A DNA stretch of 24,044 bases from Candidatus Woesearchaeota archaeon (lineage in GTDB: Archaea; Nanobdellota; Nanobdellia; Woesearchaeales; GW2011-AR4), in the NCBI GenBank assembly GCA_016181305.1, contig JACOZN010000020.1, forward strand, positions 1 to 24,044, written 5' to 3'. Within the stretch, counting starts at the first letter, position 1. Every line of letters starts with the position of its first letter. The translations under genes were made by a program, and so were the position numbers. Positions 2 through 24,043 of this stretch are shown here, one piece after another. The notes under the pieces were generated by a model. It had not been told where the DNA came from, searched no databases, and was given only the letters and a program-made list of their open reading frames with translations.

Positions 2-1552
2 AACCTCAAATGCACTTCATGCCAGCTCGACACAACATCATGCATAGAAGCCCCAAAATGCGGCAATAATCTCATAGACAAGGGAGAAAGCTGCGACGGC
101 ACAAACCTAGGGCCCTTAAGCGGAAAGTGCGCTGACTACAGCGCCGAATTTAACTCAGGCTCAATGAAATGCGCAGACTGCAAGCTCGACACTTCAGGAT
201 GCGCAAAGGCCCAGGCATGCGGCAACAACAAGCTCGATACAGGAGAGCTTTGCGACGGCACAAACTTCGGCAACATTACAGATTTAAGCTGCAGCAAGTT
301 CAGCCCAAATTTCATTAACGGGACTTTGGCATGCAAGTCCTGCAGGGTAAAGACTGACGACTGCAGGACAAACTCCACGCTGCCGCCGCTGATTACCTGC
401 AGGGACAGGGGTGACTGCAAGCTAAACGAGCCTTGCAGCGACAATTCAGACTGCGAAGGCAGGTTCTGCTCCGTAGGGAAGTGCGTGCAGGCAGGCTGCA
501 GCGACGGCACCAAAAATCAAGGCGAAACTGACATCGACTGCGGAGGGCCGTGCGGCAAGTGCCCGAATGGAAGGGCATGCAACACAGAAAACGACTGCCA
601 GAGCAACTCCTGCAGCTTCGGGTTCTGCAGGCAGCAGGAAAGCTGCTTCAACGGCAAGCTCAACCCAGGTGAAACTGACATCGACTGCGGAGGGCCATGC
701 CCGTCAAAATGCCCTGAAGGAAGAAACTGCAACCTGGACAGAGACTGCGAGCAGAGCATGAAGTGCATTTCATCGTCATGCAAAAGCTGCGGGGCGAATG
801 ACAACAACTGCAACGGGATTCCTGACGACGAGGAGCTAAGCGGCATCAAGGACACGGACAAAGACGGCCTGCCTGACGATTGGGAAATAGAGAACGGGCT
901 TAACCCGAATGACCCAAGCGATGCCGATATAGACTCTGACAACGACGGCCTGACAAATCGCGAAGAATTTGATGTGAAGAATACATACACAAGAAGCACA
1001 GACCCAAACAAAGATGACACGGACGAAGACGGCTTCAAAGACAAAGACGAACTTGACAAGGGCACAAGCCCTGTTGACCCAGAAGACTTCCCGAAATCAG
1101 GCACGGCAAAGATCATCATGTTCTCTTTGGGCATATTAGTGCTGCTTTCAGGCATAGGGTATCTTGCTTACCAATTAAAAATGAGGAAAGAGGAGAAGCA
1201 CGAGCTGCTGAAGCACAAAGAATCTCCAAGGCCGGCACCGCAGCCGCAGATGAGGCAAGCGCCGCAACAGAGGAAAGCAGAGGACGCGAGGCTGGAAGCC
1301 TTGAAAAGAAGAGAAGAGCTGAAGGAAAGGGAAAGGGAAAAGCTGTTCGAGGCTTTTGGCAGGGAGAAAGAGCCGGAGAGCGCCAAAGCCGAAAAACAAG
1401 AAGCACCTAAGGCAAAGAAGCCAATAGCGGAGAAAGCTGAGAGGAGTAAAAAACGGCCGAGAAAGCCAAAAGAAGATGTTTTTGTCAGGCTCAAGGAGAT
1501 TGCAAAAGAGGCAAAAAAGAAGAAATCAAAGCGCAAAAATGCCAAAAAATGA
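2..1552 (+). CDS. Cys-rich, TSP3-repeat, C-terminally membrane-anchored surface protein (5'-truncated by the window)
   Basis: Frame +2 is open from base 2 (NLKCTSCQLDTTSCIEAPKCGNNLIDKGESCDGTNL...), so the ATG at 164 is internal. It contains ~54-aa CGNN-x-D-x-GE-x-CDGTN repeats, two GETDIDCGGPC repeats, acidic DxDxDG TSP3-like repeats (851-1087), a TM helix (IIMFSLGILVLLSGIGYLAY) and a Lys/Glu-rich tail. The TGA stop overlaps the next ATG. Confidence 0.85.
   Translation, partial: NLKCTSCQLDTTSCIEAPKCGNNLIDKGESCDGTNLGPLSGKCADYSAEFNSGSMKCADCKLDTSGCAKAQACGNNKLDTGELCDGTNFGNITDLSCSKFSPNFINGTLACKSCRVKTDDCRTNSTLPPLITCRDRGDCKLNEPCSDNSDCEGRFCSVGKCVQAGCSDGTKNQGETDIDCGGPCGKCPNGRACNTENDCQSNSCSFGFCRQQESCFNGKLNPGETDIDCGGPCPSKCPEGRNCNLDRDCEQSMKCISSSCKSCGANDNNCNGIPDDEELSGIKDTDKDGLPDDWEIENGLNPNDPSDADIDSDNDGLTNREEFDVKNTYTRSTDPNKDDTDEDGFKDKDELDKGTSPVDPEDFPKSGTAKIIMFSLGILVLLSGIGYLAYQLKMRKEEKHELLKHKESPRPAPQPQMRQAPQQRKAEDARLEALKRREELKEREREKLFEAFGREKEPESAKAEKQEAPKAKKPIAEKAERSKKRPRKPKEDVFVRLKEIAKEAKKKKSKRKNAKK
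524..696 (+). repeat. Intragenic 26-nt perfect direct repeat (GAAACTGACATCGACTGCGGAGGGCC), 2 copies
   Basis: Identical copies at 524-549 and 671-696, 147 nt (49 codons) apart, encoding ETDIDCGGP. Confidence 0.9.
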
Positions 1553-2028
1553 AAAGTGCACAGATTTACGGCCAGATATTCATCTACGTGTTAACCATAA
1601 TATTAATATCTTTTATTCTGGTTTACGGATATAATGCAGTCCGGAATTTTAGGGAAAGGGCTGAGCAGGTGGCATGCCTCAAGCTGAAAAGCGAGCTGAG
1701 CAACTCAGTTGAGAGCATATCGGGGGATTTTGGAAGCATAAGAAAAAAAGACATCCAGATGTGCAGGGGATACACCCAGATATGCCTTGTGGAGACATTC
1801 GAGACGCCGAAGCTGCCCGGCAGGATTGACCCAATTATAAAGGACAGCATATTGTCAGGCACCGGGAGAAATGCCTTCCTGGCGGATAAAATAGCAAAGG
1901 AGTCATTTTATGCAGGAAAAATATCAGTTGAGCCTGATGTGCTGTGCATAAAATCAGTCAACAACAAAGTCAGCCTGAGGCTGGAAGGCAAAGGCAACCA
2001 TGCAGTAATCAGCGAATGGGCAGGCTAA
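1549..2028 (+). CDS. Class III signal peptide (prepilin-like) protein
   Basis: MKSA|QIYGQIFIYVLTIILISFILVYGY: basic residue, small residue, Q, then a hydrophobic helix. ATGA overlap with the upstream gene. Confidence 0.8.
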   Translation: MKSAQIYGQIFIYVLTIILISFILVYGYNAVRNFRERAEQVACLKLKSELSNSVESISGDFGSIRKKDIQMCRGYTQICLVETFETPKLPGRIDPIIKDSILSGTGRNAFLADKIAKESFYAGKISVEPDVLCIKSVNNKVSLRLEGKGNHAVISEWAG

Positions 2029-2060
2029 TTTATTAAACATCGGATATAGGTTCTGCGATA

Positions 2061-3053
2061 ATGGACAAAAAGGCATTCGAAATACAGTTTAACTGGATTT
2101 TTGTGCTGGTGGCAGGGGCCGCAATACTGCTTTTTTTTTCAGTCATAGTAATCAAGCAGAAGGCTGTGTCAGAAACCTCGACAAAAGCCACTGTGCTTAA
2201 AAGCTTCGAGGCGATAATAACAGGAACAAGCGTAAGCACAGACACAACAAGCATAATAGACATACCAAACTCTGATATAGAAGTGAGCTGCGGCAGGATA
2301 TCCCTCGGAAGCGTATCAAACCAGTACCAAAACCTCGTGTTGTTTTCCCCGGCATTAATCAAGGGAAACCGGCTCATAACACATACATTAGCCTTCAGCA
2401 CCCCATACAGGGCGACAAATCTCCTTTACATAACAAGCCCGAACCTCAGGTACATCATCATAGGAGACAGCAATCTTGCAAGGGAAATAAACAGCTCGCT
2501 GCCATCAAGGCTCAAGAAGGAATTTTACAATGATGCGACTCAAGTCAAAAACCAGAACAACTACAAGGTTAAATTTGCAGTTTTTGGCGACATGATAGAT
2601 TTTCCGAAATCGCTTGAGGCAATGCCTGATTCGGATGTCGAAGCAGCCAGGTTTACAGGCGACAGCTGGAGCGGCACCGTGGATTTCTATGCCAAGGAAA
2701 AGTTTTCATGGCGGCACAGGGGCAGCTCAGCTTACATAGGGAAAGCATCGCTGATAGGGGCAGTTTACTCTGGGAAAGAGATGTATGACTGCAACATGGA
2801 AAACGTCTTTTTCAGGCTTAATCTTGTGACAAAAGTCTACATAGACAAGGCAAAAAAGCTTGCCCAGGACGCAGCGTCAAAAAAACAATTTCAGTGCAGC
2901 CAGATCTACAGCAGCTCCCTGAACCACCTCAGCAGCATTGGCTCTGCCTCCAAATTCATAAATGAGAATGTCGTTGCCGTGGCAAGCGCTGCAAAATCGC
3001 TGGCGGAGGAAAGCCAGAATGCCCAGGTATACTCCTGCCCGCTTATTTACTGA
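2061..3053 (+). CDS. Class III signal peptide (prepilin-like) protein, 330 aa
   Basis: MDKKA|FEIQFNWIFVLVAGAAILLFF. TATA-like TTTATTAAA at 2029-2037. Confidence 0.8.
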   Translation: MDKKAFEIQFNWIFVLVAGAAILLFFSVIVIKQKAVSETSTKATVLKSFEAIITGTSVSTDTTSIIDIPNSDIEVSCGRISLGSVSNQYQNLVLFSPALIKGNRLITHTLAFSTPYRATNLLYITSPNLRYIIIGDSNLAREINSSLPSRLKKEFYNDATQVKNQNNYKVKFAVFGDMIDFPKSLEAMPDSDVEAARFTGDSWSGTVDFYAKEKFSWRHRGSSAYIGKASLIGAVYSGKEMYDCNMENVFFRLNLVTKVYIDKAKKLAQDAASKKQFQCSQIYSSSLNHLSSIGSASKFINENVVAVASAAKSLAEESQNAQVYSCPLIY

Positions 3054-3054
3054 C

Positions 3055-3528
3055 ATGAAAAGAGCGCAAATCCAAATGGGAGAGACAATAGCTGTCTTGT
3101 TTGTATTCTTTGTACTGATAACCATAGGGTTTATATTTTATGTGAAGGTGGTGAAGAGCAACATAGAGCAGGAGAAAGACGAGTTCTCCCAGCTCAGGTC
3201 AGTCGGGGTTGCACAAAGAGTCATGTTTCTGCCTGAGCTCCAATGCAGCGAGGACAACATAGTAAAGGACAACTGCATAGACATCCTGAAACTTGATGCT
3301 GCGCAAAGCCTTATGAAGGAAAATGAAGTCTATTACTATGACCTGCTCCAGTTCAGCGACGTGGGCATTTCGCAGATTTATCCGGCAGAGACAAAATGGG
3401 AAATCTACTCGCGAAGCCTGGAAGGATTCAAGAGCAAGTTCGTGACAAACATACCTGTAGCATTGTACAATCCAAGCACCAGAAGATACGGCTTCGGAGT
3501 CTTGGCTATAGAGACATTTTCAAAATGA
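3055..3528 (+). CDS. Class III signal peptide (prepilin-like) protein, 157 aa
   Basis: Start re-called to ATG 3055, 1 nt after the upstream stop: MKRA|QIQMGETIAVLFVFFVLITIGF. Confidence 0.8.
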   Translation: MKRAQIQMGETIAVLFVFFVLITIGFIFYVKVVKSNIEQEKDEFSQLRSVGVAQRVMFLPELQCSEDNIVKDNCIDILKLDAAQSLMKENEVYYYDLLQFSDVGISQIYPAETKWEIYSRSLEGFKSKFVTNIPVALYNPSTRRYGFGVLAIETFSK

Positions 3529-4049
3529 AAAGACAAACGAAATCCAAGAATTTTGTTGCCCCACGAAAATCAGGATTTTCGACGGGAGCGCAGATGGAAA
3601 TACTTGGATTGGCTATTGTGGTGGTTTTGATACTCATGGCCACGATCTACATAGTCTCATTTCTTGTGGTTAGAACCCCGACAGACTACAGAAAGGGCTT
3701 TGTGAGCGCAGAGCTGGCATCAAACATGCTAAACACCTTTCTCAAGGCCGCAGCAAGAGACTGCTCGCAGCTTACAATGACAGAGCTCCTGCAGGACTGC
3801 GCTCAGGGGCAAGGCATTGTATGCAGCAACGGGCAGGACTCGTGCAGGTATGCAGAATCAACGGCAAGGGAAATATTTGAAAAGACTCTTGACAAGTGGA
3901 GCATGAAATACGAGTTTCTGGCTTATACAGACATAAATGCGCCTTTGGTGAAGGCTGGAAAGCAGTGCATAGCAGAGAAAAGGTCAAAACTGTTCCCAAT
4001 CCCGATAAGCTCTGCAACTATGTACGCAAAACTTGACATCTGCGGATAA
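3525..4049 (+). CDS. Prepilin-like protein with an unusually extended leader, 174 aa
   Basis: Start re-called to ATG 3525 (ATGA overlap): MKRQTKSKNFVAPRKSGFSTGA|QMEILGLAIVVVLILMATIYIV. Several Cys in the C-terminal domain. Confidence 0.75.
   Translation: MKRQTKSKNFVAPRKSGFSTGAQMEILGLAIVVVLILMATIYIVSFLVVRTPTDYRKGFVSAELASNMLNTFLKAAARDCSQLTMTELLQDCAQGQGIVCSNGQDSCRYAESTAREIFEKTLDKWSMKYEFLAYTDINAPLVKAGKQCIAEKRSKLFPIPISSATMYAKLDICG
3558..3589. repeat. Short imperfect palindrome inside the prepilin leader coding sequence
   Basis: CGAAAAT (3564-3570), CAGG loop, ATTTTCG (3575-3581) form a perfect 7-bp stem, extended by CCC/GGG pairs outside. Confidence 0.7.
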
Positions 4050-4107
4050 AAACCAAATATTTAAATATAACTTATTTAATAAAAGGGTATTATAAAGAGG
4101 CTTGCAA

Positions 4108-4386
4108 ATGAATAAAAAAGCGCAGAGCATTTCCATCAACACAATCATTGTCGCTGCAATAGCGCTGGCTGTGCTTGTAGTATTGTTTGCAATATTCACA
4201 GGAAGATTGGGCGGATTTACAAAAGGCGTCCAGGAAACAGACACCTGCAGCCAGAAATGCGCCAGCCTGAACCTGCCGAATTCTGCCGATGCAACGCAGT
4301 TTGACTGCACTCAGAAGCCTTCAGGGACTTTCATAGCAGGCAGGTACAGCGATACGCCGACAAACGGGTGCTGCTGCTATAAATAG
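4108..4386 (+). CDS. Small archaeal type IV pilin-like protein (candidate major pilin), 92 aa
   Basis: MNKKA|QSISINTIIVAAIALAVLVVLFAIFTG, with a Cys-rich C-terminus ending CCCYK. SD-like AGAGG at 4096-4100 and AT-rich TATA-like boxes at 4060-4079. Confidence 0.85.
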   Translation: MNKKAQSISINTIIVAAIALAVLVVLFAIFTGRLGGFTKGVQETDTCSQKCASLNLPNSADATQFDCTQKPSGTFIAGRYSDTPTNGCCCYK

Positions 4387-4395
4387 ATAAAAACG

Positions 4396-4403
4396 TTTAT
4401 ATA
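4396..4403 (+). promoter_or_regulatory. TATA box TTTATATA (probable leaderless transcript)
   Basis: Lies 23-30 nt upstream of ATG 4426. Confidence 0.6.
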
Positions 4404-4425
4404 CTTCTGTTTTAATTAAGCCAAC

Positions 4426-4695
4426 ATGCACAAAAAATCACAGAGTTTGTCCATCAACACAATCATTATAGCTGCCATTGGTTTAGCGGTACTTGTAGTA
4501 TTGTTTTTGGTGTTCACAGGCAGGTTTAAGATTTTCAGCGAGGGGATAGAAAAAACCGGATTAAGTTGCAAGGAGAGCTGTAAACTAGCTAAGTATTCAG
4601 ATGGCAATCCTGGAACAAGTTGCGACAACAAAATAGGTGGCAGTTTTAGCGATGTAGATCCCAAAAAGAATGAGGTTTGTTGTTGTGTACCGTAG
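4426..4695 (+). CDS. Small archaeal type IV pilin-like protein, paralog of 4108-4386, 89 aa
   Basis: MHKKS|QSLSINTIIIAAIGLAVLVVLFLVFTG, ending CCCVP. Shares exact DNA blocks with the upstream paralog (TCCATCAACACAATCATT at 4132 and 4450). Confidence 0.85.
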   Translation: MHKKSQSLSINTIIIAAIGLAVLVVLFLVFTGRFKIFSEGIEKTGLSCKESCKLAKYSDGNPGTSCDNKIGGSFSDVDPKKNEVCCCVP

Positions 4696-6039: not shown

Positions 6040-6207
6040 ATGGGAATAATGAAAAACAAGAAAGCAGGAGTAGGAGAAGCCACTGGCGTAACAGCAGGAA
6101 GAATTATTATGTGGATTCTTCTGGGTGCACTTTTAATATGGGCGCTTTTTTGGTATAGTAACTTTGGAACATATCTAATTAAACTAGGAAAATCATATTT
6201 AAAATGA
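6040..6207 (+). CDS. 55-aa micro-pilin-like peptide (not in the ORF track)
   Basis: Translated by hand: MGIMKNKKA|GVGEATGVTAGRIIMWILLGALLIWALFWYSNFGTYLIKLGKSYLK*. It fills the 6039-6203 gap exactly, starts 1 nt after the previous stop, and its TGA overlaps ATG 6204. Confidence 0.75.
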   Translation: MGIMKNKKAGVGEATGVTAGRIIMWILLGALLIWALFWYSNFGTYLIKLGKSYLK

Positions 6208-7397
6208 CAAAAAGAGGGGCTGTAAGCTCAATTATAACCCTTGCAATACTTCTAATACTCTTGGCTGTGCTTTTTGCAGCATTTTATGAATCACTGCTGC
6301 CAAGCGTTGCGAATGCAGCAGAGCGCTTTGCAGACAAAACTTTAAGCAGGTTTAAAAGGGAAAAATTCCAGAATGTTGAAATAGTGGCAGATAAATCTGT
6401 TGACGAAACATATGAAAACATATTGAGTGTTTTAAGAACAACCAATAAAGGCCCTTGCATAACAACCCGTAAGGCTTTTCCAAGGGACTTCAAAGATTTT
6501 AAAATTACCCTATCCCAAACGGAACAGGGAATTTTTGTCATACTAAAAAATAAACAGGAACGCGTTATCAAAAGCAATACAATAAGCGGCAAAATACCTT
6601 GTGTTGTTGGTGAGGGAGAAGCTGCCAAGAATTTTTATAATAATTTTTTAAAAGTTTCGCGCTGCACATCCAACTGCTTAGGCGATTACAGCGCAGCAAA
6701 CATAGAATTTAATAGCGCAGACTCCATCATAGTGAATGGGCAAAAAAGAAACCTTGATGATGGCAATCTAGTTTATGTAACAGAAAATGGGAATGTCTGC
6801 TTTTTTCCTACCCATAATAGCGGAGTGTCTATAATAAGGCCATGGGAAATATATACAAAATATGGTTGTGACGCGGAAACAGGAAGTTTAGATGACGATT
6901 GCATTGAGCAGGTAAAAAGAAAAATACCTCAATGCAAGAATGAAGAATGGGAAAAAATACTTGAAGATTACAACAAAAATAAGTGTAAAGTTGACAAATA
7001 CACTTGCAAGGTTGAGAGTCTTGGCTGCCAGTGCTTCTCGGCAGGACTTCTCCAAAGCCAGCAGAAGCCTGAAATATGTGATGAGACAAAACCATTTTGC
7101 TATGATGGTGAGTATGGCTGCAATGACAAAGGTCCGGATTTGAAAGGCTATTCAGAAGTCTGCAAAAAAACCAATAAAAATTTCGAATTAGCCCAAAAAT
7201 GCCAAGTAGATGAAAACTGCCTAGTCAAAAATGCCCCGTGCAGTTGTCATGACGCAGATACCAAATTAAGAGGAAAATTGCCTTATGTATGCCTTGAGGG
7301 AAATTATTGCTACAATGAGCAGATAGGTTGTAAAAAAGACATTGACCCCAGTCAACCTTTATATGTTGATTATTGCCAAAAAAGCAATAAGAATTAA
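6204..7397 (+). CDS. Large prepilin-like protein with two C-terminal 8-Cys repeats, 397 aa
   Basis: MTKRG|AVSSIITLAILLILLAVLFAAFY. Tandem Cys modules start at 6984 and 7200. Confidence 0.8.
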   Translation: MTKRGAVSSIITLAILLILLAVLFAAFYESLLPSVANAAERFADKTLSRFKREKFQNVEIVADKSVDETYENILSVLRTTNKGPCITTRKAFPRDFKDFKITLSQTEQGIFVILKNKQERVIKSNTISGKIPCVVGEGEAAKNFYNNFLKVSRCTSNCLGDYSAANIEFNSADSIIVNGQKRNLDDGNLVYVTENGNVCFFPTHNSGVSIIRPWEIYTKYGCDAETGSLDDDCIEQVKRKIPQCKNEEWEKILEDYNKNKCKVDKYTCKVESLGCQCFSAGLLQSQQKPEICDETKPFCYDGEYGCNDKGPDLKGYSEVCKKTNKNFELAQKCQVDENCLVKNAPCSCHDADTKLRGKLPYVCLEGNYCYNEQIGCKKDIDPSQPLYVDYCQKSNKN

Positions 7398-7420
7398 TAT
7401 AATTATTGAGAGGTATTAAA

Positions 7421-7729
7421 ATGAAAAACAAAAAATCATTGGCATTGCCAACAGAGTTAATTATCACCTTTGTTATTTTAGGGCTAGTGCTTCTCGTGAT
7501 AGTAGGTGGGGGTATAAGGGGTATTCTTCTTCCACAACTTGCCAAAGCAGGCGAAAAATCAGAATATGCAACGCAGGATTGTGATGAAGATGATGTTGTA
7601 GGAGTAAGTGATCCTTGCCCTTGCGTAAATGCAGTCAAACAAAAGTCTGAAAAAGGGCAAACCTGCCCACCTCCAGATAATAAAGCAACAACAAACTGCC
7701 CAGCCTTGTGCAAAAGCAAACAAAAATGA
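7421..7729 (+). CDS. Small prepilin-like protein with a TSP3-like motif, 102 aa
   Basis: Start re-called to ATG 7421 (SD GAGAGGT at 7408-7414): MKNKKS|LALPTELIITFVILGLVLLVIVGGG, followed by QDCDEDDVVGVSDPCPC. Confidence 0.75.
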   Translation: MKNKKSLALPTELIITFVILGLVLLVIVGGGIRGILLPQLAKAGEKSEYATQDCDEDDVVGVSDPCPCVNAVKQKSEKGQTCPPPDNKATTNCPALCKSKQK

Positions 7730-8376
7730 AAAAGGCAGACATAGTGCTTGGCATCTTATTCTGGACAATAGTCGGATTGATGATTTTCGTGCCAACTGCG
7801 CTATTTGCCAGCAAATTATTTAATTTAAGCAGCAAAGGGCTTGAATCTTCCAACAAGCTTGCAGAGATAATTGCATCGCTCAAGGATGGGGATCAGTTAA
7901 GCAGCCCGGTTTACATGGAGCAAAAATCATTTATTGTAGGATTTGCAAAAAACAGCAATAGGTTTGAAAATCATAGGTTCAGATATTCAGGGGTACAGCC
8001 TACAGATGTTGTGGTAGTTTTTGACAAGCCTGAGAAATGTGCAGGCAAATCATGCTTATGCTTTTGCAATACCATGGATTTAAACCAAAAGCAACAGCCA
8101 ATTTTAATATTATGCAATAAAGAGCCAATATGCACACCTTTTAACAACATTGATTTTCTGCCTGAGAAAATAATCAGAAAAGATGAAAACGGAAAGACAA
8201 GAGTTCTTTTCAAAGGCGGGTTTATGTTTATCAGGGGTTTTGAGATTGAGGCGCTCAACCCAAGCCAGGCTGCAACCCTTACAGCATATGTTGAAAGATA
8301 CAAAGATATAGTTGATGTTTGCGCAGAGCGCCCATGCATCACAAGCGAGATAAAACAGAGAATAGACTCAGGATAA
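7726..8376 (+). CDS. Prepilin-like protein, 216 aa
   Basis: Start re-called to ATG 7726 (ATGA overlap): MKKA|DIVLGILFWTIVGLMIFVP. Confidence 0.75.
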   Translation: MKKADIVLGILFWTIVGLMIFVPTALFASKLFNLSSKGLESSNKLAEIIASLKDGDQLSSPVYMEQKSFIVGFAKNSNRFENHRFRYSGVQPTDVVVVFDKPEKCAGKSCLCFCNTMDLNQKQQPILILCNKEPICTPFNNIDFLPEKIIRKDENGKTRVLFKGGFMFIRGFEIEALNPSQAATLTAYVERYKDIVDVCAERPCITSEIKQRIDSG

Positions 8377-8420
8377 TAATTTCCAAAAGAGATTTAAATC
8401 TATAATATTCTTTATCCAAT

Positions 8421-8828
8421 ATGAAAAAGAGAGGGGACACAACAGCCTTTTGGTTTTTTGTAGAGACAATAGTGGCAATTGTTATAGTCTTTATGATTGT
8501 CGATGTTTCTGTGGCTCGCGCAGAGGGCAAAATCTACGAGAAGCTGAACATTGCCAAGGACATTGCAATGCAGATAAATACATTGTCAGGCATTTCAGGA
8601 GATGCATACATAGTAAACAAAAACCTACATGGTTATTCTTTGCACTTTTTTGATAATAGGATAGAAGTTTTTGAAAACAGCTTTGAGCAATCCAAAGGCA
8701 TCTACTATTTTGTAAAGATAGGTGATACAAAACTTGACTTAAGGCTGGACAAACCAAAACAGGTTGTGGTGGCAAAAATAAACAATGAAATAGCGGTTTC
8801 AGAGGATATTCCAAGCGCAATCAAATGA
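8421..8828 (+). CDS. Prepilin-like protein, 135 aa
   Basis: MKKRG|DTTAFWFFVETIVAIVIVFMIV. TATA-like TTTAAAT at 8393-8399. Confidence 0.8.
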   Translation: MKKRGDTTAFWFFVETIVAIVIVFMIVDVSVARAEGKIYEKLNIAKDIAMQINTLSGISGDAYIVNKNLHGYSLHFFDNRIEVFENSFEQSKGIYYFVKIGDTKLDLRLDKPKQVVVAKINNEIAVSEDIPSAIK

Positions 8829-9292
8829 ACTCCAGCAAAAAAGGCGACATATTGGGGAGGAAAATGGTATTTTATGTCATAGCCATATTTGTGATTGTTG
8901 CAGCTTTTTTTGTTGTCACCCCTGCTATCGCCTCTGACAAATCCAAAATAAGCGAGTTGCCTGAGGGGCTTGAAAATTATTTTCTGATACAAAGATTCCT
9001 CAACGCCCCATCATGCTTTGCTCTTCAGGACAGGGACACAGGCAGAACTTTTCCCATGACAATAGACATAGAAAAATTCAATGAGGCAAATCTCAACAAG
9101 TGCTACAACGCCCAGGATACAAGCGTGAAGGCTTACAGGCTTACGCTCAAATACGGGAACGTTGAAAAATCACTAAGCACAAAAAACTGGCAGGGCTTCT
9201 TCAGAAAAGCTGAAACAAAGAGAGTTTTTGCATATGACAACGGCAATGTGCAAAAAGCCGAACTGATTATAGAAACCCAAAATGCAAAATAA
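8825..9292 (+). CDS. Prepilin-like protein, 155 aa
   Basis: MNSSKKG|DILGRKMVFYVIAIFVIVAAFFVV. ATGA overlap. Confidence 0.8.
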   Translation: MNSSKKGDILGRKMVFYVIAIFVIVAAFFVVTPAIASDKSKISELPEGLENYFLIQRFLNAPSCFALQDRDTGRTFPMTIDIEKFNEANLNKCYNAQDTSVKAYRLTLKYGNVEKSLSTKNWQGFFRKAETKRVFAYDNGNVQKAELIIETQNAK

Positions 9293-9782
9293 GAAATCGC
9301 AAATTGAGGACTTGCTGTCTTTTTTGGCTGCAATAGTAATTATAGTATTTGTGGTTTTTTTCTTTCCATCAAGAAGTATAGCCGGAACAAAAGCTGTGCA
9401 GGAAAAAATAAACCTTCAAATGATAAGCAAGGATTCCGAGCAGTTACTGATTAGTTACCTCAGGACTCCATTAAACAATGACGTTGATGTAGCAGAAGCA
9501 GTTAATACTTATTTTGTCAGTAATGATGAAAATTTGCTGAATCAGATAAAAACTCTTGCTCATGAATTCTTTTCAAAGAGTTACTTAGAAACAGACAGCT
9601 CTTCATGGTCGTTGGAGATAAGATATCCCGGGAAAAGTTCGCTCATAATTGAGCCGGAAAAAGCAAGGACAAATTACATTTTAAGAAAAGAAATTTCTGT
9701 TGTAACTATCCCAACACAATTTTTTGATAAGCAAATAGAACTTAAGATGTTTTTAGTCCAAACAAAATATGTTCCAAAATGA
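9282..9782 (+). CDS. Prepilin-like protein, 166 aa
   Basis: MQNKKS|QIEDLLSFLAAIVIIVFVVFFF. Confidence 0.8.
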   Translation: MQNKKSQIEDLLSFLAAIVIIVFVVFFFPSRSIAGTKAVQEKINLQMISKDSEQLLISYLRTPLNNDVDVAEAVNTYFVSNDENLLNQIKTLAHEFFSKSYLETDSSSWSLEIRYPGKSSLIIEPEKARTNYILRKEISVVTIPTQFFDKQIELKMFLVQTKYVPK

Positions 9783-12134: not shown

Positions 12135-12156
12135 CCATTTCCCCAACCCCTTGTTT

Positions 12157-14172: not shown

Positions 14173-14198
14173 CTAACTCTACTCTACTACTTGTTGAA

Positions 14199-14318: not shown

Positions 14319-14321
14319 AAA

Positions 14322-14618: not shown

Positions 14619-14684
14619 CCTCTTTCTAAACCAAAAGTATAAAAAACAAAGGTGATTATAAAATGGAACAAGAGCTAATAGAAG

Positions 14685-15575
14685 TTGAGCCAAACAACAG
14701 AAGGAAAAAGACATGACCTGATGAGCATAGCAGTCGCAACTCCGGCAGAATTGGTTGATGCAACCGGCATGAGCGATGCAGTCGCAAAGAAGATGATTGC
14801 AGTCGCAAGGTCTTCATTGGAAATGGGCTTTGAGTCAGGAGAAGAACTTCTTAAAAGAAGGGAAAAAGTCCAAAGAATAAAAACAGGAAGCAAAAACTTT
14901 GATGCATTGCTCGGCGGCGGACTTGAAACAGGCGCGATTGTGGAATGCTTTGGAGAATTCGGCTCAGGCAAAACCCAGATTGGGCATGTTTTGGCAGTAA
15001 ACAGCCAGTCAATTGAAAAAGATGCAGTTGCAGTCTACATCGACACAGAAAACACTTTTCGCCCAGAGAGAATAATCCAATTGGCAAAAGGCGCTGGCTT
15101 GGATGAAGAGCAGGTGCTGAAAAACATCAAAGTGGCAAGAGCATACAACTCTGACCACCAGATGCTGCTGGCAGAAAAAATAGAGGACTTAATCAAGAAG
15201 CAGGGCTTGAACGTCAAGCTTGTTGTGATTGACTCATTGACAGCTCATTTCAGGGCAGAGTTCATCGGCAGAGGGACATTGGCTGACAGGCAGCAGAAGC
15301 TTAACAAGCACATGCACATTTTGCTTAAATTGGCTGACACGCACAATCTTTGCGTTTATGTAACCAATCAAGTCATGGCAAAGCCTGACATGTTCTTCGG
15401 CGACCCGACACAGGCAATTGGCGGGCATATTGTTGCGCATGCGTCAACCTTCAGGGTTTACCTCAGAAAAGGCAAGAAAGGCACAAGAGTTGCAAAACTC
15501 ATTGATTCCCCCAATATGCCAGAAGGCGAGGCAGGATTCTATGTTGACGAGACTGGAGTAAAAGACGTAGAATAA
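14685..15575 (+). CDS. radA: DNA repair and recombination protein RadA (N-terminus apparently disrupted)
   Basis: Polymerisation motif MGF, Walker A GEFGSGKT, Walker B LVVIDS, YVTNQV and [10 protein letters not shown]. The SD-led ATG at 14663 is in a different frame and stops at 14714-14716. Confidence 0.9.
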
Positions 15576-15589: not shown

Positions 15590-16408
15590 TTAATTTTTTT
15601 TCTTTAAAACAAAATTAAAATATTCCCTATCCCCGCTTCTAAAGGACTCATATGTTTCTGTCCCCTTTAATCCGGCAAAATCCGAGAAGGACTTATGAAG
15701 TATCCTCGGCACTTTTTGGATAAGCTTTAGCTTGCGGTTGTTGTCCAATTCCAAAGCCCTTAAGACATTTTGAGTTATTCTTTCCTCCTTGATTAATTCA
15801 AAGCCCGAATGCACTAGCTGTTTACGCAGAGTGCTGATTTCATCCCTCTTGCGAAAGTCAGCAAACAAGAAATGCCCATCTGGCCGAATTACCCTGAAAA
15901 CTTCCCTCAAAAATTGATCCATATTTCCGTAGCAATGTGAAGACTCGACGTTGACCACAGCATCAAATTTATTGTCTTCAAAAAGAAGGGACTCAGCATC
16001 TCCAACATAAAATGAAAGCCCTTTAACAGAATAAAATTTTTTACAGAATTCAATTGATTTTCTGGAAAAATCTAAACCCATCATAGAGCTTGGTTTGAAG
16101 TATCGCATGATGTAAGATGAACCGCCTCCGCGCCCACAGCCTACCTCAAGCAAGTCTTTGTCTTTCAGGTTAATGGCGCTTGCAACATGGTGATAAAGCT
16201 GAATGCAATAGCGGTTCTTTTCATCAATTTTTCTAAGTTTTGCCTTTTCTGATTCAGAAGCATACCCATAATTCATAAAAATGACCTGTGCTCCTTTGTC
16301 CAATCCGGTAACATACTGATAAAATACTCTTCAGACTGAACGCTTTAACCCCGGCGATACGCCACAAACTAAATCAAAAAACTTGTGTAATGCAGCTTTT
16401 GTTGTCAT
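15590..16408 (-). pseudogene. Class I SAM-dependent methyltransferase with an in-frame TGA at codon 26
   Basis: ATG 16408 has a TATA box (16438-16447) and AGGGG upstream. Reading: MTTKAALHKFFDLVCGVSPGLKRSV*RVFYQYVTGLDKGAQVIFMNYGY. TGA is at 16333-16331. SAM motif LLEVGCGRGGG and VVNVESSHCY follow. The remainder from TTG 16303 is an intact ORF. Confidence 0.65.
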
Positions 16409-16500: not shown

Positions 16501-17145
16501 ATGGATATGGCATACCCTATTGCAAGATACATTATAACGCCGATTTACAGGCTCTGGATAAGGAAAATAGGCGGATTGCAGAACATACCGAAGGGCAAGC
16601 CTTTCATAATAGCAGCAAACCATACAAGCTACTTTGATGCATTGCTCCTGCCTTCAATAATCGGCCCAAGGGTGAACAAGAGCGTGCACGCTTTAGCCAA
16701 CAGCTTTTACTGGAAGCCACTCCTGACAAGGTTCTTCCTTAACTTATGGGAGGCATTGCCTGTCTATGTCGGCAATGAGAAGGGCGCAAAAAGGAAAAAC
16801 CAGCAGTCATTGGAAATGGCATTAAAATATATCCAAAAAAATGAGCTGCTGATGGTTTTTCCGGAAGGCACAAGAAGCCCTGATGGAAAATTAAAAAAAG
16901 CATACACGGGCATTGCAAGGCTGGCATTAAATTCAAAAGCCCCTGTGCTGCCATGCGGAATCATAGGCTCGAACAGGGTGCTTCCAAAAGGAGCATCCTT
17001 TCCAAGATTCGCAAGGTGCGAGGTTAAGATCGGAAAATTGATGTATTTTAACCACAAAAGCAAAAATGAAAAAACATACGAGAGAGTAACAATAAAAATT
17101 ATGAAAGAAATAGCAAAGCTGATCAACCAGAAATACAGCTACTAA
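16501..17145 (+). CDS. plsC: 1-acyl-sn-glycerol-3-phosphate acyltransferase (PlsC/LPAAT family), copy 1
   Basis: Catalytic NH-x4-D (ANHTSYFD) and FPEGTRS blocks. Confidence 0.9.
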   Translation: MDMAYPIARYIITPIYRLWIRKIGGLQNIPKGKPFIIAANHTSYFDALLLPSIIGPRVNKSVHALANSFYWKPLLTRFFLNLWEALPVYVGNEKGAKRKNQQSLEMALKYIQKNELLMVFPEGTRSPDGKLKKAYTGIARLALNSKAPVLPCGIIGSNRVLPKGASFPRFARCEVKIGKLMYFNHKSKNEKTYERVTIKIMKEIAKLINQKYSY

Positions 17146-17146
17146 G

Positions 17147-17779
17147 ATGGTATACCTAATCCCAAAGCTTACGATAATACCGATTGTAAAGCTCTATGTA
17201 AAAGAAGCCAAAGGCCTTGAAAACCTGCCAAAAAAAGGAGCGTTCATAGCAGCTGCGAACCATGCAAGCTATATCGACCATATGATAATAGCGTCTTTTT
17301 TGGTATCCCATCTCGACAGAAAAGTGCATTTCCTTGCAAAAAAGGAGCATTTTGACAATGTTTTCAAGAAGGCATGGCACAATTACGTCGGAGCAATCCC
17401 CCTAGACAGGGCAAAAGGCGGCAGAGAGGCATTGAAATGGGCAATAAATGCTTTAAAGGGCGGGAATATAATAGCAATACATCCCGAAGGCACAAGAAGC
17501 CTGACTGGAAATCTGCAGAGGGCAAAAACAGGAGTTGCAAGGCTTGCACTGAAGGCAAAAGCGCCCGTCGTACCAATAGGGTTAATAGGGACTTTTGATA
17601 TACTGCCGAAGGGAAAATACCTACCAAGGTTCAAAAGGGCTGTAATGGGCATCGGCAAGCCAATTTCTTTTGAGAAATACTACGGCAAAAAGATTAATAA
17701 AAAGATGCTCAGGGAGATAACAACAGGGATAATGAAGGAGATTGCTAAGCTGTCAAAACAAAAATATAATTTCAAATGA
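17147..17779 (+). CDS. plsC: 1-acyl-sn-glycerol-3-phosphate acyltransferase (PlsC/LPAAT family), copy 2
   Basis: ANHASYID, FLAKKE and HPEGTRS blocks. Confidence 0.9.
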   Translation: MVYLIPKLTIIPIVKLYVKEAKGLENLPKKGAFIAAANHASYIDHMIIASFLVSHLDRKVHFLAKKEHFDNVFKKAWHNYVGAIPLDRAKGGREALKWAINALKGGNIIAIHPEGTRSLTGNLQRAKTGVARLALKAKAPVVPIGLIGTFDILPKGKYLPRFKRAVMGIGKPISFEKYYGKKINKKMLREITTGIMKEIAKLSKQKYNFK

Positions 17780-18753
17780 AAAAAATCTCGGTCATAGGGG
17801 CAGGCTCGTGGGGAACAACTTTGGCAGTTCTGCTTGGGGAAAAAGGCTTTGACGTAAAGCTGTGGGCAAGGAGGGAAGAGCTTGCAAACGAGATTGAAAG
17901 CAAAAAGGAAAACATGCAGTATCTACCCGGAATAAAAATACCGGGCAATGTCATTGCAGACCATTCTTTAAAAAATGTCCTTGAAAGCTCTGAAATGGCG
18001 GTAGTTGCCATCCCGTCGGAGTTTTTTAGAAAAATATTGAAGGATATAAAGCCCTTTTTTAGCAATCAGGTCATTGTCAGCGTCACGAAGGGAATAGAGC
18101 ACCATACCAACAAGAGAATGTCTCAAGTCATTGAAGACGAGCTTGGCAAGGCGAAAATAGCCGTGCTTTCCGGCCCAAACCACGCAGAAGAAGTCAGTGC
18201 CAGGATGCCGACTGCAAGCGTTGTGGCGAGCAGCGACATGAAGACAGCAAAGCATGCTGCAGAGTGCCTTGCAGCCCCTTACTTCAAGCTTTACTGCCTG
18301 AATGATATTGCAGGAGTTGAAATCTGCGGAGCCCTGAAGAACATACCTGCAATAGCCACAGGAGTTTGCGACGGGTTTGGGCTTGGGGACAACGCACGAG
18401 CGTCAATAATAACGCTTGGCCTGATGGAGATGAACAATTTTGGAAGGCACTTTGGCGCAAAAAGAGGGACAGTATACGGGCTTGCAGGAGTCGGAGACCT
18501 GATTGCCACGTGCACAAGCAGGCACTCAAGAAACAGGTTTGTGGGCGAGCAGCTTGCAAAAGGCAAAACAATGGACGAGATAAAAAAAGAGATGCATGGC
18601 ATGATTGCAGAAGGGATTCCGACAACAAAGGCCGTTTACGAGTACAGCAAAAAGCACGGCATAGAAATGCCATTGGCGCAGCAGGCTTATGAAGTCCTTT
18701 TCGAGAAAAAAGATATAAAGCAGGCAGTTAAGGATTTGCTGAGGCTGGTGTGA
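17776..18753 (+). CDS. gpsA: NAD(P)H-dependent glycerol-3-phosphate dehydrogenase
   Basis: IGAGSWGT Rossmann motif, LSGPNHAEEV, GALKN and GLAGVGDLIATCTSRHSRN. ATGA overlap with plsC. Confidence 0.93.
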   Translation: MKKISVIGAGSWGTTLAVLLGEKGFDVKLWARREELANEIESKKENMQYLPGIKIPGNVIADHSLKNVLESSEMAVVAIPSEFFRKILKDIKPFFSNQVIVSVTKGIEHHTNKRMSQVIEDELGKAKIAVLSGPNHAEEVSARMPTASVVASSDMKTAKHAAECLAAPYFKLYCLNDIAGVEICGALKNIPAIATGVCDGFGLGDNARASIITLGLMEMNNFGRHFGAKRGTVYGLAGVGDLIATCTSRHSRNRFVGEQLAKGKTMDEIKKEMHGMIAEGIPTTKAVYEYSKKHGIEMPLAQQAYEVLFEKKDIKQAVKDLLRLV

Positions 18754-19353: not shown

Positions 19354-19356
19354 TTT

Positions 19357-20557: not shown

Positions 20558-20863
20558 TTAAAATCTTAAGCCGCCGTCAACCCTTATAACTTCGCCTGTT
20601 ATGTAGCCTGCCTTGTCAGATGCAAGAAAAGCAACCAGGCTTGCTACATCCTGCGGAGTGCCGCTTCTGCCAAGGGGTATTGAGCCTGCCAGCTCCTTTT
20701 TCCTTGCCTGTGGAATGGATTTGATAATGTCAGTCTCTATAAGCCCAGGAGCTACTGCATTTACAGTAATGCCGTGCTTCCCAAGCTCCTTTGCCAACGA
20801 CTTTGTAAAGCCTATTATTCCGGCTTTTGAAGCTGCATAATTAGTCTGCCCGAAATTGACATT
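20558..20863 (-). pseudogene. fabG: Out-of-frame C-terminal part of the FabG-like SDR
   Basis: The frame of ORF 20558-20797 extends upstream as [40 protein letters not shown]. The catalytic YxxxK (20839-20825) is in a different frame from the N-terminal half. Confidence 0.8.
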
Positions 20864-22227
20864 AATGCGCTCTTGGTTACATTATAAATACCCTTAAGGT
20901 TAGTTGTTATTACACTGTCCCATTCCCCCCTAGCCAGGTTTTGCAGTGTTTTGTCCATTATTATTCCTGCATTATTGACCAGTATGTCCAGCTGCCCAAA
21001 CTCCTTCTTTATAGTATCAAACATTGCCTTTACCTCGTTAGGGTTGCCAACATCGGCCTTTATTGATATGCACCTGGAATATTTTTTTGCCCCATCAACA
21101 GCTTCAGAGGCTTCTTTCTCATTCCTGTTGTAGTTGACAATTACATTCGCACCTTTTTTTGCAAGCTCGATCGCTATAGCCCTGCCTATGCCTCTTGAAG
21201 CTCCTGTCACCAATGCAGTTTTTCCATTCAACCCCAGCCGGTTTTCAGCAAGGGAATGTTTTGGCTTTTTTGCGGTAACATAAAGGAAGCTGATGATGAA
21301 TCCCTCAGCATCAGCCAGCGGATTTTTGCTCCTTAGCTCGTCAAACAGCCTGTTTGAAGCCAGTGTAATCAGCGTGTCCCTGTCTGTCTCCTCTTTTTGC
21401 GAGGGCTCGTTGCCGCCTATCTCAGGCAATATGCCTGCCTGCAGCCTTCTTACCCTCAGAAAATTAAGCCAGTCGCTGTATTTCACTTTTATCAGCTTGT
21501 AATGGTGCCCAAGGTACTCGAAGCCCGCACCCTTCAGTGCTTTGAGATAGATGCCAATCGGCCTGGGGTCCGGGAACACAAATTTTCGCTGCGGCTCTGT
21601 CGCCTTTATGCGCGCGTCAATGTCTTTCCTGTAGGCTGCAAACTTGGAATATTTGCGCACAATATCCAGCGCTATGTCATGCACCCTTTTTACCGTGTCG
21701 TCAACAAGCAGTGCGCCCTCAGGCCCCTCGTTTGGTATGTTGCCGCTCAAGAACGTAAAAGTGCCGCTTTCCTTCAGGGCTTCTGAAATTCCCCTGAATG
21801 TATCCTCAATGTCCGGAATAAGGTGGACAGTATGCGCTGAAACAACATGATTGACTATGTTTCTGCCGACGCAATCGCCAAGCTTTGAATAAGCCTCATT
21901 TTTTTTCTCAAGAAGAAAGCACTTGACATTAGGGTTGTCGCTGAATACCTCATAGGCTTTTCCCAGCCATGCGGCAGAGTTGTCAACAAGCCACAGCTCT
22001 ACATTAACTTTCAGGCGTTCCAGCAGGCGAATGGCTGAAACGCCTGTGCCCGCCCCGAAATCAACGACAATGTCGCCGTTTTTTACCTTAGGGACGATAA
22101 GGCCTGCCAGCTCATCCAGTGCAGCTATGTAATACTCAGCCTTGGATACTGCCTCGTGGTATGCTGTAGCACCTCTTGATGTCGGCCTGTCAGGCTTCCA
22201 GCAGCTGCGCCCGCCTTCTTCACTCAT
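20815..22227 (-). CDS. Class I methyltransferase fused to the N-terminal part of a FabG-like SDR (frameshifted after TKSAL)
   Basis: [11 protein letters not shown] motif in the N-terminal ~320 aa, then [27 protein letters not shown] and TTNLKG. After KSAL the sequence is no longer SDR-like. Confidence 0.8.
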
Positions 22228-23357
22228 ATGATCACACCCCTGCTTTGCAGTTCCATGATTTTTGATTTGCTATAACCCATTTTTTTTAGCAAGCCTTTTG
22301 CATTTTCTCCAAGCTTTGGATGCCTTACGCAGGCAATCTTTTTATGCGATGAAAACTCAACAGGCATCTTTACAAGGGATATCCCGTCAACCTCTTCCAG
22401 CATTTTCCTGCCCTTGAAATGGCTGTCTTTGGCTAAACTCCCCATCTTTTTTACAGGCTCGCAGCAAAAATCATGCCTGCGGCTTATTTCCATCCATTCC
22501 TTTACCTTTTTGCTCTTGAAAACAGCCTGCATTTCAATGGCAATTTCTCTGCTGCTGTCAAATTGCCTGCCAATAAGCTCCTCTCTTCCGATTGCGCTGC
22601 AAAAATTCACCCAGAATTTTTTTTCTATCGCGCCAAGGCTTACAAACTCGCCATCCTTTGTTTTATATATGCTGTAGCAGGGCTTGCTGCCCGACAGTAC
22701 AGTATCAATGTTTTCCGAGACAGACCTGTATGCCATATGGATTCCTATGACAAAGAGTGCCGTGTCAAGCACCGCAACATCTATATAGCAGCCCCTGCCG
22801 CTTTTTTGCCTCGAGAGCAAAGAAGCGACAATCGCAAATGCGGAAACAAGCGCGCTGCTTGTGTCAGGAACCTGCACGCCGGCAACAATCGGCTTTTGGA
22901 ACATTGCATCAAGCATCCCGCTTAGTGATGCATAATTCAGGTCATGCCCTGCCTTGTTTCTGTAAGCACCTTTCTGCCCATAGCCCGTTATTGAGCAGTA
23001 AACTATGCCCGGGTTTATTTTTTTGACAGCTTTGTACCCTATGCCAAGGGCATCCACTTTGCCGGGGCGGAACCCTTCAATAATGACATCCGCATCTTTT
23101 GCAAGAGCCATAAAAATTTTTTTCCCCTCATCAGCTTTCAGGTTCAATGAAATGCTTTTTTTGTTACGGTTAAGGGCAGCAAAATAAGGATTTTTGCCGT
23201 TCACGTTTTCAAAGTACCTCATTGGATCGCCGCTTGGGCTTTCAACCTTTATGACATCGGCACCGAGCTCTGCAAGAAGCAAAGAGCACATTGGCCCGGG
23301 CAAAAGATTTGACAAGTCCAAAACATTTATTCCTTTCAGCATTTCGCTCCCAACCAT
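22224..23357 (-). CDS. CaiB/BaiF family III CoA-transferase (alpha-methylacyl-CoA racemase-like)
   Basis: VLDLSNLLPGP, LGADVIKVE, EGFRPG and SITGYGQKG...GHDLNY. The start is ATG 23357 or ATG 23342. ATGA overlap with the downstream gene. Confidence 0.88.
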   Translation of the reverse strand: MVGSEMLKGINVLDLSNLLPGPMCSLLLAELGADVIKVESPSGDPMRYFENVNGKNPYFAALNRNKKSISLNLKADEGKKIFMALAKDADVIIEGFRPGKVDALGIGYKAVKKINPGIVYCSITGYGQKGAYRNKAGHDLNYASLSGMLDAMFQKPIVAGVQVPDTSSALVSAFAIVASLLSRQKSGRGCYIDVAVLDTALFVIGIHMAYRSVSENIDTVLSGSKPCYSIYKTKDGEFVSLGAIEKKFWVNFCSAIGREELIGRQFDSSREIAIEMQAVFKSKKVKEWMEISRRHDFCCEPVKKMGSLAKDSHFKGRKMLEEVDGISLVKMPVEFSSHKKIACVRHPKLGENAKGLLKKMGYSKSKIMELQSRGVII

Positions 23358-24043
23358 CAATTAAGGTTCCTCAATATGTGCATTGTTGCAATGCTCCCGG
23401 CTCCCCCGATGTTCAGGGCAAGCCCGTAGCTTGGGTTTTTAACCTGCCTTTTTCCGCACTCGTTCTTCATCTGCTTTGCAATCTCGTAGATTTGGGCAAG
23501 CCCTGTAGGGCTTATCGGATGGCCCTTTGCCTTCAGCCCGCCGCTTGTGTTCACGGGTATTTTTCCGTCAAGCTTTGTAATGCCTTCCCTGATAAGCCTC
23601 GGGCCTTCGCCGGCACTGCAAAACCCCAAATCCTCGTATGAAATTAATTCCAATGGCGTGAAAGCATCGTGCAGCTCCGCAACCCTTATATCGGACGGGG
23701 AAATTCCAGCCTCCTTGTATGCGATTTCCGCCGCTTTTCTCGTGGCCCAGAAAGAAGCCATATCGTCTCTTTCAAAAGGGCTTAAGTAATCGTTTTCTTC
23801 CGCAGAGCCAACAACCTCAATGCCAGACTCGTCTTTGGAGAGTATCAAAGCGGCAGCCCCATTGCATGAAATGCTGCAGTCAAATACCCTAAGCGGAGAC
23901 GCAACAACAGGGGAATTTTTTATATCCTCCAGAGAAACCTTCTTTTTGTAAAACCTCGCCTTGGGGTTGAGGTAGGCGTTTTCATGGTTCTTTAGAGCCA
24001 CCAATGCAAAGTCATCTGTTGTTGCGCCGTACTTCAGCATGTA
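23357..24043 (-). CDS. Thiolase (acetyl-CoA acyltransferase, archaeal/SCP2-like type), 5'-truncated by the window
   Basis: KNH-x-N, ELHDAF, VNTSGGLKAKGHPISPTG and NIGG. The frame stays open to the window edge. Confidence 0.88.
   Translation of the reverse strand, partial: YMLKYGATTDDFALVALKNHENAYLNPKARFYKKKVSLEDIKNSPVVASPLRVFDCSISCNGAAALILSKDESGIEVVGSAEENDYLSPFERDDMASFWATRKAAEIAYKEAGISPSDIRVAELHDAFTPLELISYEDLGFCSAGEGPRLIREGITKLDGKIPVNTSGGLKAKGHPISPTGLAQIYEIAKQMKNECGKRQVKNPSYGLALNIGGAGSIATMHILRNLN

Follow-up and report, generated by a model that had tools for sequence, protein, structure and literature searches.

Our analyses indicate that a 24,044-base stretch of archaeal DNA (the window), which is the whole of contig C11 in a 22-contig, 1.07-Mb groundwater Woesearchaeota genome of 78% completeness and 0.25% contamination, probably holds two independent traits: a surface operon (1549-11909), headed by a giant Cys-rich protein with TSP3 repeats and apparently aimed at bacterial cell walls, and a bacterial-type glycerolipid module (16501-24043) that runs on into the adjoining contig C21. 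The two appear to be neighbours only through a gene order kept within the genus. An earlier interpretation, made from the letters of the window alone (the sequence-only reading), had joined them into one lifestyle, that of an archaeon which attaches to bacteria, breaches their wall and scavenges their fatty acids. Every module listed in that interpretation was located in the window sequence, and the breaching of the wall gained in strength; the link drawn between the modules was not upheld.

The independence of the two traits is seen in their distribution across the order Woesearchaeales. One genome from each of 100 other families was compared by Fisher tests, the genome under study being excluded. 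The conserved N-terminal domain of the wall-peptidase protein of the surface operon (hereafter the N-domain) was present in 17 of the 22 genomes positive for GpsA, the glycerol-3-phosphate (G3P) dehydrogenase of the lipid module, and in 57 of the 78 GpsA-negative genomes (odds ratio 1.25, p 0.79), while an M15-type peptidase head, scored as the union of two genome profile scans, was present in 2/22 and 9/78, respectively (odds ratio 0.77, p 1.0). FabZ, in contrast, occurred in 7/22 GpsA-positive vs 2/78 GpsA-negative genomes (odds ratio 17.7, p 0.0003) and CarS in 17/22 vs 31/78 (odds ratio 5.2, p 0.003); the genomes compared are kin, so these p-values overstate, the direction being nonetheless clear. 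Across the families, the lipid module is accompanied by genes for chain building and head groups and not by those for wall attack. Since GpsA is independent of both the N-domain and the M15 heads at the level of the order, the functional link proposed between the modules was not supported and, the modules being inherited independently, neither was the single lifestyle built upon it; an independent distribution of this kind is what the sequence-only reading had itself named as evidence against its hypothesis. Within the window itself, the genes for RPA and RadA stand between the wall-attack and lipid modules.

Their adjacency is genus-level synteny. When every protein of the window was compared by tblastn with five genomes of the genus, one gene order was recovered in all five, namely the giant protein, the pilin-like genes, the M15 protein, RPA, RadA, plsC, plsC, gpsA and uS2, followed by the acyl-CoA genes wherever the fetched stretch of the relative's contig extends far enough. 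Identity to these relatives was 69-93% for the housekeeping proteins and 24-75% for the pilin-like proteins. The termini of C11 overlap exactly with the end of contig C15 (25 nucleotides) and with the start of C21 (33 nucleotides), which gives the contig order C15-C11-C21 with each join inside a gene, and the G+C content lies between 0.39 and 0.42 in 22/22 contigs. A chimeric contig, a concern raised by the sequence-only reading itself, is ruled out by the uniform G+C content, the order kept in five relatives and the exact overlaps with C15 and C21. The archaeal, DPANN-type source of the DNA was likewise borne out by RadA (Rad51 family, 283.9 bits), an RPA-like OB-fold protein and ribosomal protein uS2, the closest RadA genes among named records (84-91% identity) being those of Candidatus Woesearchaeota metagenome-assembled genomes from groundwater. 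Of the sampled words of the window, 0.90-0.94 were present in each of four runs from a single groundwater metagenome study; these runs may be the source sample. Many near relatives of this RadA are also found in third-party assemblies titled 'uncultured Methanosarcinales archaeon', which looks like a labelling error.

The surface operon comprises 15 co-directional open reading frames (ORFs) on the forward strand, among which a protein of 382 residues reveals the putative target. Its N-domain (residues about 35-190) is followed by an M15B zinc peptidase head (about 250-365). The VanY profile (PF02557) scored 24.7 bits on the protein, against a cut-off of 25, and 26.4 bits, above the cut-off, in the genome scan. 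The motifs of the head could be aligned to those of VanXY (SAYR..KQ for SxYR..Q, H303-x6-D and EPWH361), and both H303 and H361 are retained by all of 13 orthologues, three of which, however, bear another head. Sequence comparison with the PDB returned weak matches only (4mur, E 0.43). In the AlphaFold model, the C-terminal domain was predicted with a confidence (pLDDT) of 80-93, and Foldseek matched the head to VanXYc (4mus, E 1.1e-6, probability 1.00, TMt 0.53) and then to VanY, LdcB and the phage endolysin Ply500. The wall-peptidase domain announced by the sequence-only reading is thus present, as a VanY/M15 fold with its zinc ligands.

Homologues of the 382-residue protein were found in 32 of the 40 other genomes of the genus, where the N-domain is kept and the head varies. 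Three relatives carry an Amidase_2 head (93-99 bits) and one a Peptidase_M15_3 head (44.6 bits); two further heads resemble Peptidase_M15_3 by eye, one of them without a Pfam match. One orthologue has fn3 only on its N-domain, and a 2401-residue protein of another relative has SLT plus VanY at its end. An N-domain profile built from 13 orthologues was detected in 75/101 genomes of the order (one per family). To census the heads, the window protein and the 40 ORFs with the best N-domain matches were scanned with Pfam, and these 41 members contained Peptidase_M23 (12/41), SLT (10/41), Amidase_2 and NlpC/P60 (3/41 each), Peptidase_M15 and VanY (2/41 each), and YkuD, Phage_lysozyme2, Lysozyme_like and GDSL lipase (1/41 each). 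Thirty members were scanned singly, and 16 of them had a murein-hydrolase domain above cut-off (eight M23, four SLT, three NlpC/P60, one of which also has SLT, and one Amidase_2); in 16/16 the N-domain is immediately followed by the enzyme domain, whose first residue lies at about 175-280. The other ten of the 40 accounted, by subtraction, for two M23, five SLT, two Amidase_2, two Peptidase_M15, one VanY and one YkuD. Because unrelated murein hydrolases occupy the same position on one scaffold, bacterial peptidoglycan is the expected substrate, and that the surface operon would be aimed at bacterial murein is well supported by these sequence comparisons. The M15 fold and the interchangeable heads of the orthologues are also what strengthened the proposed breach of the wall. 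The single GDSL domain belongs to a protein of another family (L081:212-3985, genome G059), in which NlpC/P60 is combined with a C-terminal GDSL lipase/acylhydrolase (58.8 bits); it is the only lipid-active head among the 41 members.

The proteins that accompany this peptidase share N-termini reminiscent of type IV pilins. A class III-like N-terminus, i.e. a short basic stretch with [KR][GAS], which we take to be the class III cleavage motif, plus a hydrophobic helix, was read in 14/15 operon ORFs vs 80/1171 crude ORFs of the genome under an ad hoc rule made for this analysis, with three starts shifted to an internal Met. Outside the operon, contig C2 harbours a FlaI/TadA-like assembly ATPase (T2SSE, 128.6 bits), two UpsF/FlaJ-like platform membrane genes and four canonical pilin-like genes, and a prepilin peptidase was found in 37/40 other genomes of the genus, and in 12/12 of the high-quality ones. 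A model of the N-domain obtained from 43 sequences (pLDDT 84.2) consists of an N-terminal helix of ~70 residues and then a small alpha/beta unit; its best VIA-align score (Z 5.5) was among helical look-alikes. We infer secretion and processing of these proteins, about 15 of which would either sit anchored in the archaeal membrane or be assembled out of it through their pilin-like N-termini. One of them would present the zinc D-Ala-type peptidase on its conserved N-domain, and this head may, on touching a bacterium, cut the stem peptides of its peptidoglycan, which could serve attachment, feeding or killing.

At the head of the operon, the portion of the giant protein contained in the window has 39 Cys residues, then a transmembrane segment and a Lys-rich tail, and its TSP3_bac score of 22.6 bits lies under the cut-off of 25. 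The orthologue in genome G136 (2001 residues) reaches 46.7 bits, and when the gene is read across the 25-nucleotide overlap with C15 it encodes about 1874 residues with a Sec-like signal peptide. This is the adhesin-like Cys/TSP3 protein described in the sequence-only reading, and it lies just outside the interval, from 1549 onwards, that the reading had assigned to its hypothesis; by its sequence it is a candidate adhesin.

The second trait starts with the plsC-plsC-gpsA operon, which contains the enzymes of G3P/acyl-ester lipid synthesis that had been announced. The two PlsC-family proteins scored 82.4 and 92.8 bits against PF01553, with readable HX4D and PEGTR motifs, and 61.5 and 87.3 bits against TIGR00530, below its cut-off of 102.95. 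GpsA was identified with 409.6 bits against NF000942 (cut-off 257), and both of its Pfam domains match. In the genus, gpsA gave strong matches (E <= 3e-53) in 22/24 genomes and was found in 23/24 at E <= 0.001; in the order, it was found in 23/101 genomes at E <= 1e-20. CarS, the CDP-archaeol synthase, is encoded on contig C19 (113.9 bits), and the CarS ORF is also the sole match in the genome to CTP_transf_1, the family searched for CdsA (33 bits). The sequence-only reading had suggested checking whether the genome lacks the pathway of glycerol-1-phosphate and isoprenoid lipids. Neither G1PDH nor GGGPS, a UbiA-type prenyltransferase (DGGGPS), a polyprenyl (GGPP) synthase or HMG-CoA reductase was found in this 78%-complete genome (the methylerythritol phosphate pathway was not searched for), in agreement with such a lack. 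The single Fe-ADH_2 match, a candidate for G1PDH, was rejected as the 3-dehydroquinate synthase of a shikimate operon (262 bits vs 29.7 for G1PDH). GGGPS was found in 0/101 genomes of the order, 76 of them high-quality, so that its lack characterizes the entire order, in gpsA-bearing and gpsA-free genomes alike. CarS was nevertheless found in 49/101 Woesearchaeales genomes, where scavenged archaeol precursors or phosphatidic acid are possible substrates.

The acyl-CoA processing genes which had been reported at the end of the window were confirmed, and they continue upstream on C21. The thiolase, truncated by the end of C11, has its N-terminus on C21, the frame being continuous across the 33-nucleotide overlap, and it is accompanied there by a FabG-like SDR, a DUF362 protein, a second thiolase, FabZ, the biotin carboxylase AccC, BirA, BCCP and a carboxyltransferase; Thiolase_C_1 is matched on C21. 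The DUF362 protein, the presumptive thiolase partner, starts with a zinc ribbon. Several of these genes are damaged. The fusion of methyltransferase and SDR (20561-22227, reverse strand) has one frameshift near 20839-20857 with respect to an intact G136 orthologue of 573 residues, residues 7-464 lying in one frame and 475-573 in another. At C21:490-3580, a frameshift interrupts the second thiolase, and ~30 residues (profile positions 110-139) are missing from the FabG-like SDR compared with G136, which could be real decay or assembly error. FabZ was found in 10/101 genomes of the order, eight of them GpsA-positive, and in six other families FabZ and gpsA are 11-16 kb apart on one contig. The single AMP-binding ligase found in the genome is an acetate-CoA ligase (1016 bits vs a cut-off of 657), and no long-chain acyl-CoA ligase was found there.

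Taken together, these genes are consistent with a route in which GpsA would make G3P and the two PlsC-family enzymes would acylate it, the acyl donors being acyl-CoAs that the cell itself would make, independently of ACP, with a set of thiolase, ketoacyl reductase, FabZ and acyl-CoA carboxylase; CarS and CDP-alcohol transferases encoded elsewhere in the genome would then add the head groups. The scavenging of host fatty acids is not indicated, because gpsA and plsC adjoin a chain-building cluster (thiolase, FabG-like, FabZ and carboxylase genes) and the only AMP-forming ligase is the acetate-CoA ligase (a fatty-acid kinase was not searched for). This part of the sequence-only reading was consequently not supported.

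Besides the kinship of the genomes compared, several observations weigh against our interpretation of the two traits. On the surface side, no Pfam pilin family matches any operon protein, and no prepilin peptidase (Peptidase_A24) was found in the 78%-complete genome. Foldseek gave no solved-fold match for the N-domain model at E <= 0.001, and in VIA-align the pilin PilJ came 33rd (Z 4.3), level with unrelated rows and within noise. Among the 30 N-domain proteins scanned singly, 12 had no recognisable hydrolase and two had merely a sub-threshold M23. On the lipid side, the first-acylation enzyme PlsY was found in 0/41 genomes of the genus (PlsB and PlsX were not searched for) and KAS in 0/41, no ACP (PP-binding) was found in the genome under study, no enoyl reductase was identified (no search was aimed at one), and the zinc-ribbon partner on C21 has no DUF35 match. 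Three fatty-acid genes, the methyltransferase-SDR fusion, one thiolase and the FabG-like SDR, are damaged in this assembly, and the family III CoA-transferase offers a conceivable way of activating acids taken up from outside. Because enzymes are missing and three genes are damaged, endogenous synthesis of acyl chains in this archaeon, as predicted from its gene content, is plausible rather than shown. No known fold was found for the N-domain by Foldseek or VIA-align. Of the 'large pilin array' of the sequence-only reading, the array of 15 ORFs and its class III-like N-termini stand, whereas no match to a pilin family or fold was obtained; 'pilin-like' is a reasonable label, and the mixed evidence does not prove pilin membership.

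Some of these same observations could be accommodated by the lifestyle originally proposed, in which the archaeon would hold on to bacteria, open their wall and take up host fatty acids or lipids, which PlsC would re-esterify onto G3P. The swapped murein-hydrolase heads fit with it, as do the failure to find canonical archaeal lipid backbone genes, KAS, ACP or PlsY, the three damaged genes, the CoA-transferase inside the cluster and the synteny of the full arrangement in five relatives of the genus. We consider it unlikely, however, given that across 100 families the presence of GpsA is unrelated to that of the N-domain and of the M15 heads, that RPA and RadA separate the modules, and that the only AMP-forming ligase found is an acetate-CoA ligase. 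Moreover, gpsA is accompanied by FabZ and acyl-CoA carboxylase genes that would be superfluous for a pure scavenger, and the backbone would be made de novo by GpsA.

Two other scenarios concern the surface operon. The hydrolase proteins might be weapons that kill competing bacteria, the archaeon being free-living or dependent on another archaeon. Archaeal peptidoglycan hydrolases do kill bacteria and are prominent in Nanoarchaeota, according to PMC12352652; the genome is comparatively capable (a shikimate operon, acetate-CoA ligase and acyl-CoA carboxylase), and an arms race would fit the fast evolution and the swapping of heads. The heads nonetheless seem to be held by an N-terminal anchor of membrane or pilin-like type, which suits contact, instead of being freely secreted, and the genome, of about 1.1-1.4 Mb, has none of the lipid backbone genes searched for. 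Killing and feeding are not separated by the present evidence, and this scenario as a whole seems quite doubtful. The N-termini might otherwise be plain signal anchors of ordinary membrane-tethered exoproteins which form no pilus, the M15 head acting on a substrate other than murein, as the failure to match a pilin family, or a pilin fold above noise, the VanY score at threshold and an operon devoid of ATPase and platform genes would allow. This we regard as highly improbable in view of [KR][GAS] before the helix in 14/15 ORFs, of a prepilin peptidase across the genus and of at least five unrelated murein-hydrolase families in the same position, which make a non-murein substrate unlikely. Two traits of separate inheritance, one facing bacterial walls and the other building glycerolipids, therefore remain our preferred interpretation, any bacterial host being conjectural.

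The idea of a bacterial host and the bacterial-type lipid genes of Woesearchaeota are already in print. PMC8204110 described giant murein-transglycosylase proteins in Woesearchaeota and Pacearchaeota, some of them possibly episymbionts of bacteria, and noted a bacterial G3P dehydrogenase together with fatty-acid genes. The system studied here shares with those proteins the lineage, the bacterial murein target and the inference of episymbiosis, and the likeness extends to SLT, present in the 2401-residue relative (with VanY) and in 10/41 N-domain proteins. Unlike the giant transglycosylases, the window protein is small (382 residues), places an M15 head on a pilin-like N-domain and belongs to a 15-gene operon, and the interchange of M23, SLT, Amidase_2, NlpC/P60 and M15 on one N-domain is not described for the giant-transglycosylase Woesearchaeota in the part of that report available. 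PMC12352652 found the archaeal hydrolases to be diverse in Nanoarchaeota and noted domain shuffling; its survey required a known cell-wall-binding domain and recovered hydrolases in 175/3706 archaeal genomes. Archaea without murein that encode M23-type and other murein hydrolases are common to both studies, whereas proteins of the window type show no Pfam match to those binding domains and carry an N-terminal anchor domain instead (75/101). Predatory, 'vampiristic' Woesearchaeota had also been proposed from genomes with GH23 transglycosylases and a TlyC-like toxin (PMC9723730), a hypothesis which likewise has Woesearchaeota attacking bacterial peptidoglycan; the terms 'pili', 'lipid' and 'fatty acid', pertinent to the window, are absent from its text.

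Regarding the lipid genes, bacterial-type GpsA and PlsC have been reported in Woesearchaeota, with a bacterial host suggested as lipid source (PMC8204110, PMC6431249, PMC11868695), and archaeal GpsA and PlsC were read as transfers from Bacteria (PMC6431249). Relative to those reports, the operon is here joined to genes for thiolase, a FabG-like enzyme, FabZ and carboxylase, and gpsA co-varies with FabZ and CarS, not with wall hydrolases, with no PlsY, KAS or ACP found. The closest parallel is the ACP-independent archaeal fatty-acid synthase of Sulfolobus acidocaldarius (Schmerling et al. preprint, 10.1101/2024.07.05.601840), with which the cluster shares a clustered thiolase and SDR ketoacyl reductase, the lack of ACP and a zinc-ribbon partner beside the thiolase. 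It differs in its FabZ-type dehydratase, in a DUF362 instead of a DUF35 partner and in the three damaged genes. No paper was found that combines Woesearchaeota, pilin and peptidoglycan, and none that joins DPANN, pilin and N-acetylmuramoyl-L-alanine amidase; the supplements of PMC8204110 and PMC12352652 may list these proteins.

A conserved anchor domain with swappable hydrolases would offer a sequence marker, assayable enzymes and microscopy antigens with which to test a life on bacteria. We know of no host for any of the Woesearchaeota, which are among the most abundant uncultivated archaea of groundwater and sediments. The coupling of the lipid module to genes that build acyl chains moves the question from lipids 'stolen from a bacterial host' to lipids 'made by the archaeon', and makes the genus a candidate for an archaeon with bacterial-type membrane chemistry. 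As a tentative extension, murein hydrolases that can replace one another might be displayed by most Woesearchaeales on a pilin-like anchor domain peculiar to the lineage and of unassigned fold; attacking bacteria physically, or attaching to them, would then be ancestral and general in the order, while a subset including this genus might also build G3P ester membranes from self-made acyl-CoAs. If this were true, that subset of a very abundant order would join Bacteria on their side of the 'lipid divide'.

The features of the window are collected in the following table.

Features of the window, with positions on the forward strand of contig C11
Feature	Position	Strand	Basis or remark
C-terminal 516 residues of giant Cys-rich TSP3-repeat surface protein	2..1552	+	transmembrane anchor, Lys-rich tail
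Four conserved pilin-like genes (159, 330, 157, 174 residues)	1549..4049	+	class III-like N-termini
Two small paralogous pilin-like genes (94, 89 residues; 6 Cys each)	4102..4695	+	sequence, relatives
389-residue Cys-rich protein, N-terminal anchor, C-terminal glycine-zipper hydrophobic segment	4869..6038	+	sequence
Fast-evolving operon middle, six genes (397, 107, 222, 135, 155, 166 residues)	6204..9782	+	class III-like N-termini
Pilin-like N-terminus, N-domain and VanY/M15B head, 382 residues	9779..10927	+	profile, motifs, fold
Last gene of the operon, 326 residues	10929..11909	+	in 5/5 relatives, 26-47% identity
Housekeeping spacer: RPA-like OB-fold protein (+), RadA (+), plus 306-residue gene	12094..15575		family matches, synteny in relatives
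Low-GC 306-residue gene	13146-14066	-	one transmembrane segment; lowest-GC kilobase of the window (0.27)
Strain-specific SAM methyltransferase	15590..16303	-	inserted between radA and plsC
plsC-plsC-gpsA operon	16501..18753	+	two PF01553 acyltransferases and NAD(P)H glycerol-3-phosphate dehydrogenase; kept in five relatives
Acyl-CoA genes: methyltransferase-SDR fusion, family III CoA-transferase, thiolase	20561..24043	-	family matches; continues on C21

Within the surface operon, the four conserved pilin-like genes are 42-75% identical to their counterparts, which follow the same gene order in five relatives, and their sole Pfam signal is a sub-threshold FtsX match (19.4 bits vs a cut-off of 25.5). 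The two small paralogous proteins are, judging from their sequences, candidate major subunits. The 389-residue protein contains the Gly-rich membrane-type segment that the sequence-only reading had pointed out, in the form of a perfect zipper of five GxxxG repeats (residues about 303-330) which is kept in three relatives. Such zippers are found in pore-forming and channel proteins, and this segment could be a membrane-inserting element. In the fast-evolving middle of the operon, tblastn matches were weak or none in 4/5 relatives.

Two genes in or beside the housekeeping spacer set this genome apart from the five relatives. The low-GC gene matched nothing in Pfam or NCBIfam and gave no hit in those relatives; it is probably a recent insertion. 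The strain-specific methyltransferase, for which the five relatives gave no hit either, is most like the fatty-acid O-methyltransferase Mtf2 (232 bits, cut-off 400), and it also scores 244 bits against the PDIM methyltransferase, below the cut-off of that family.

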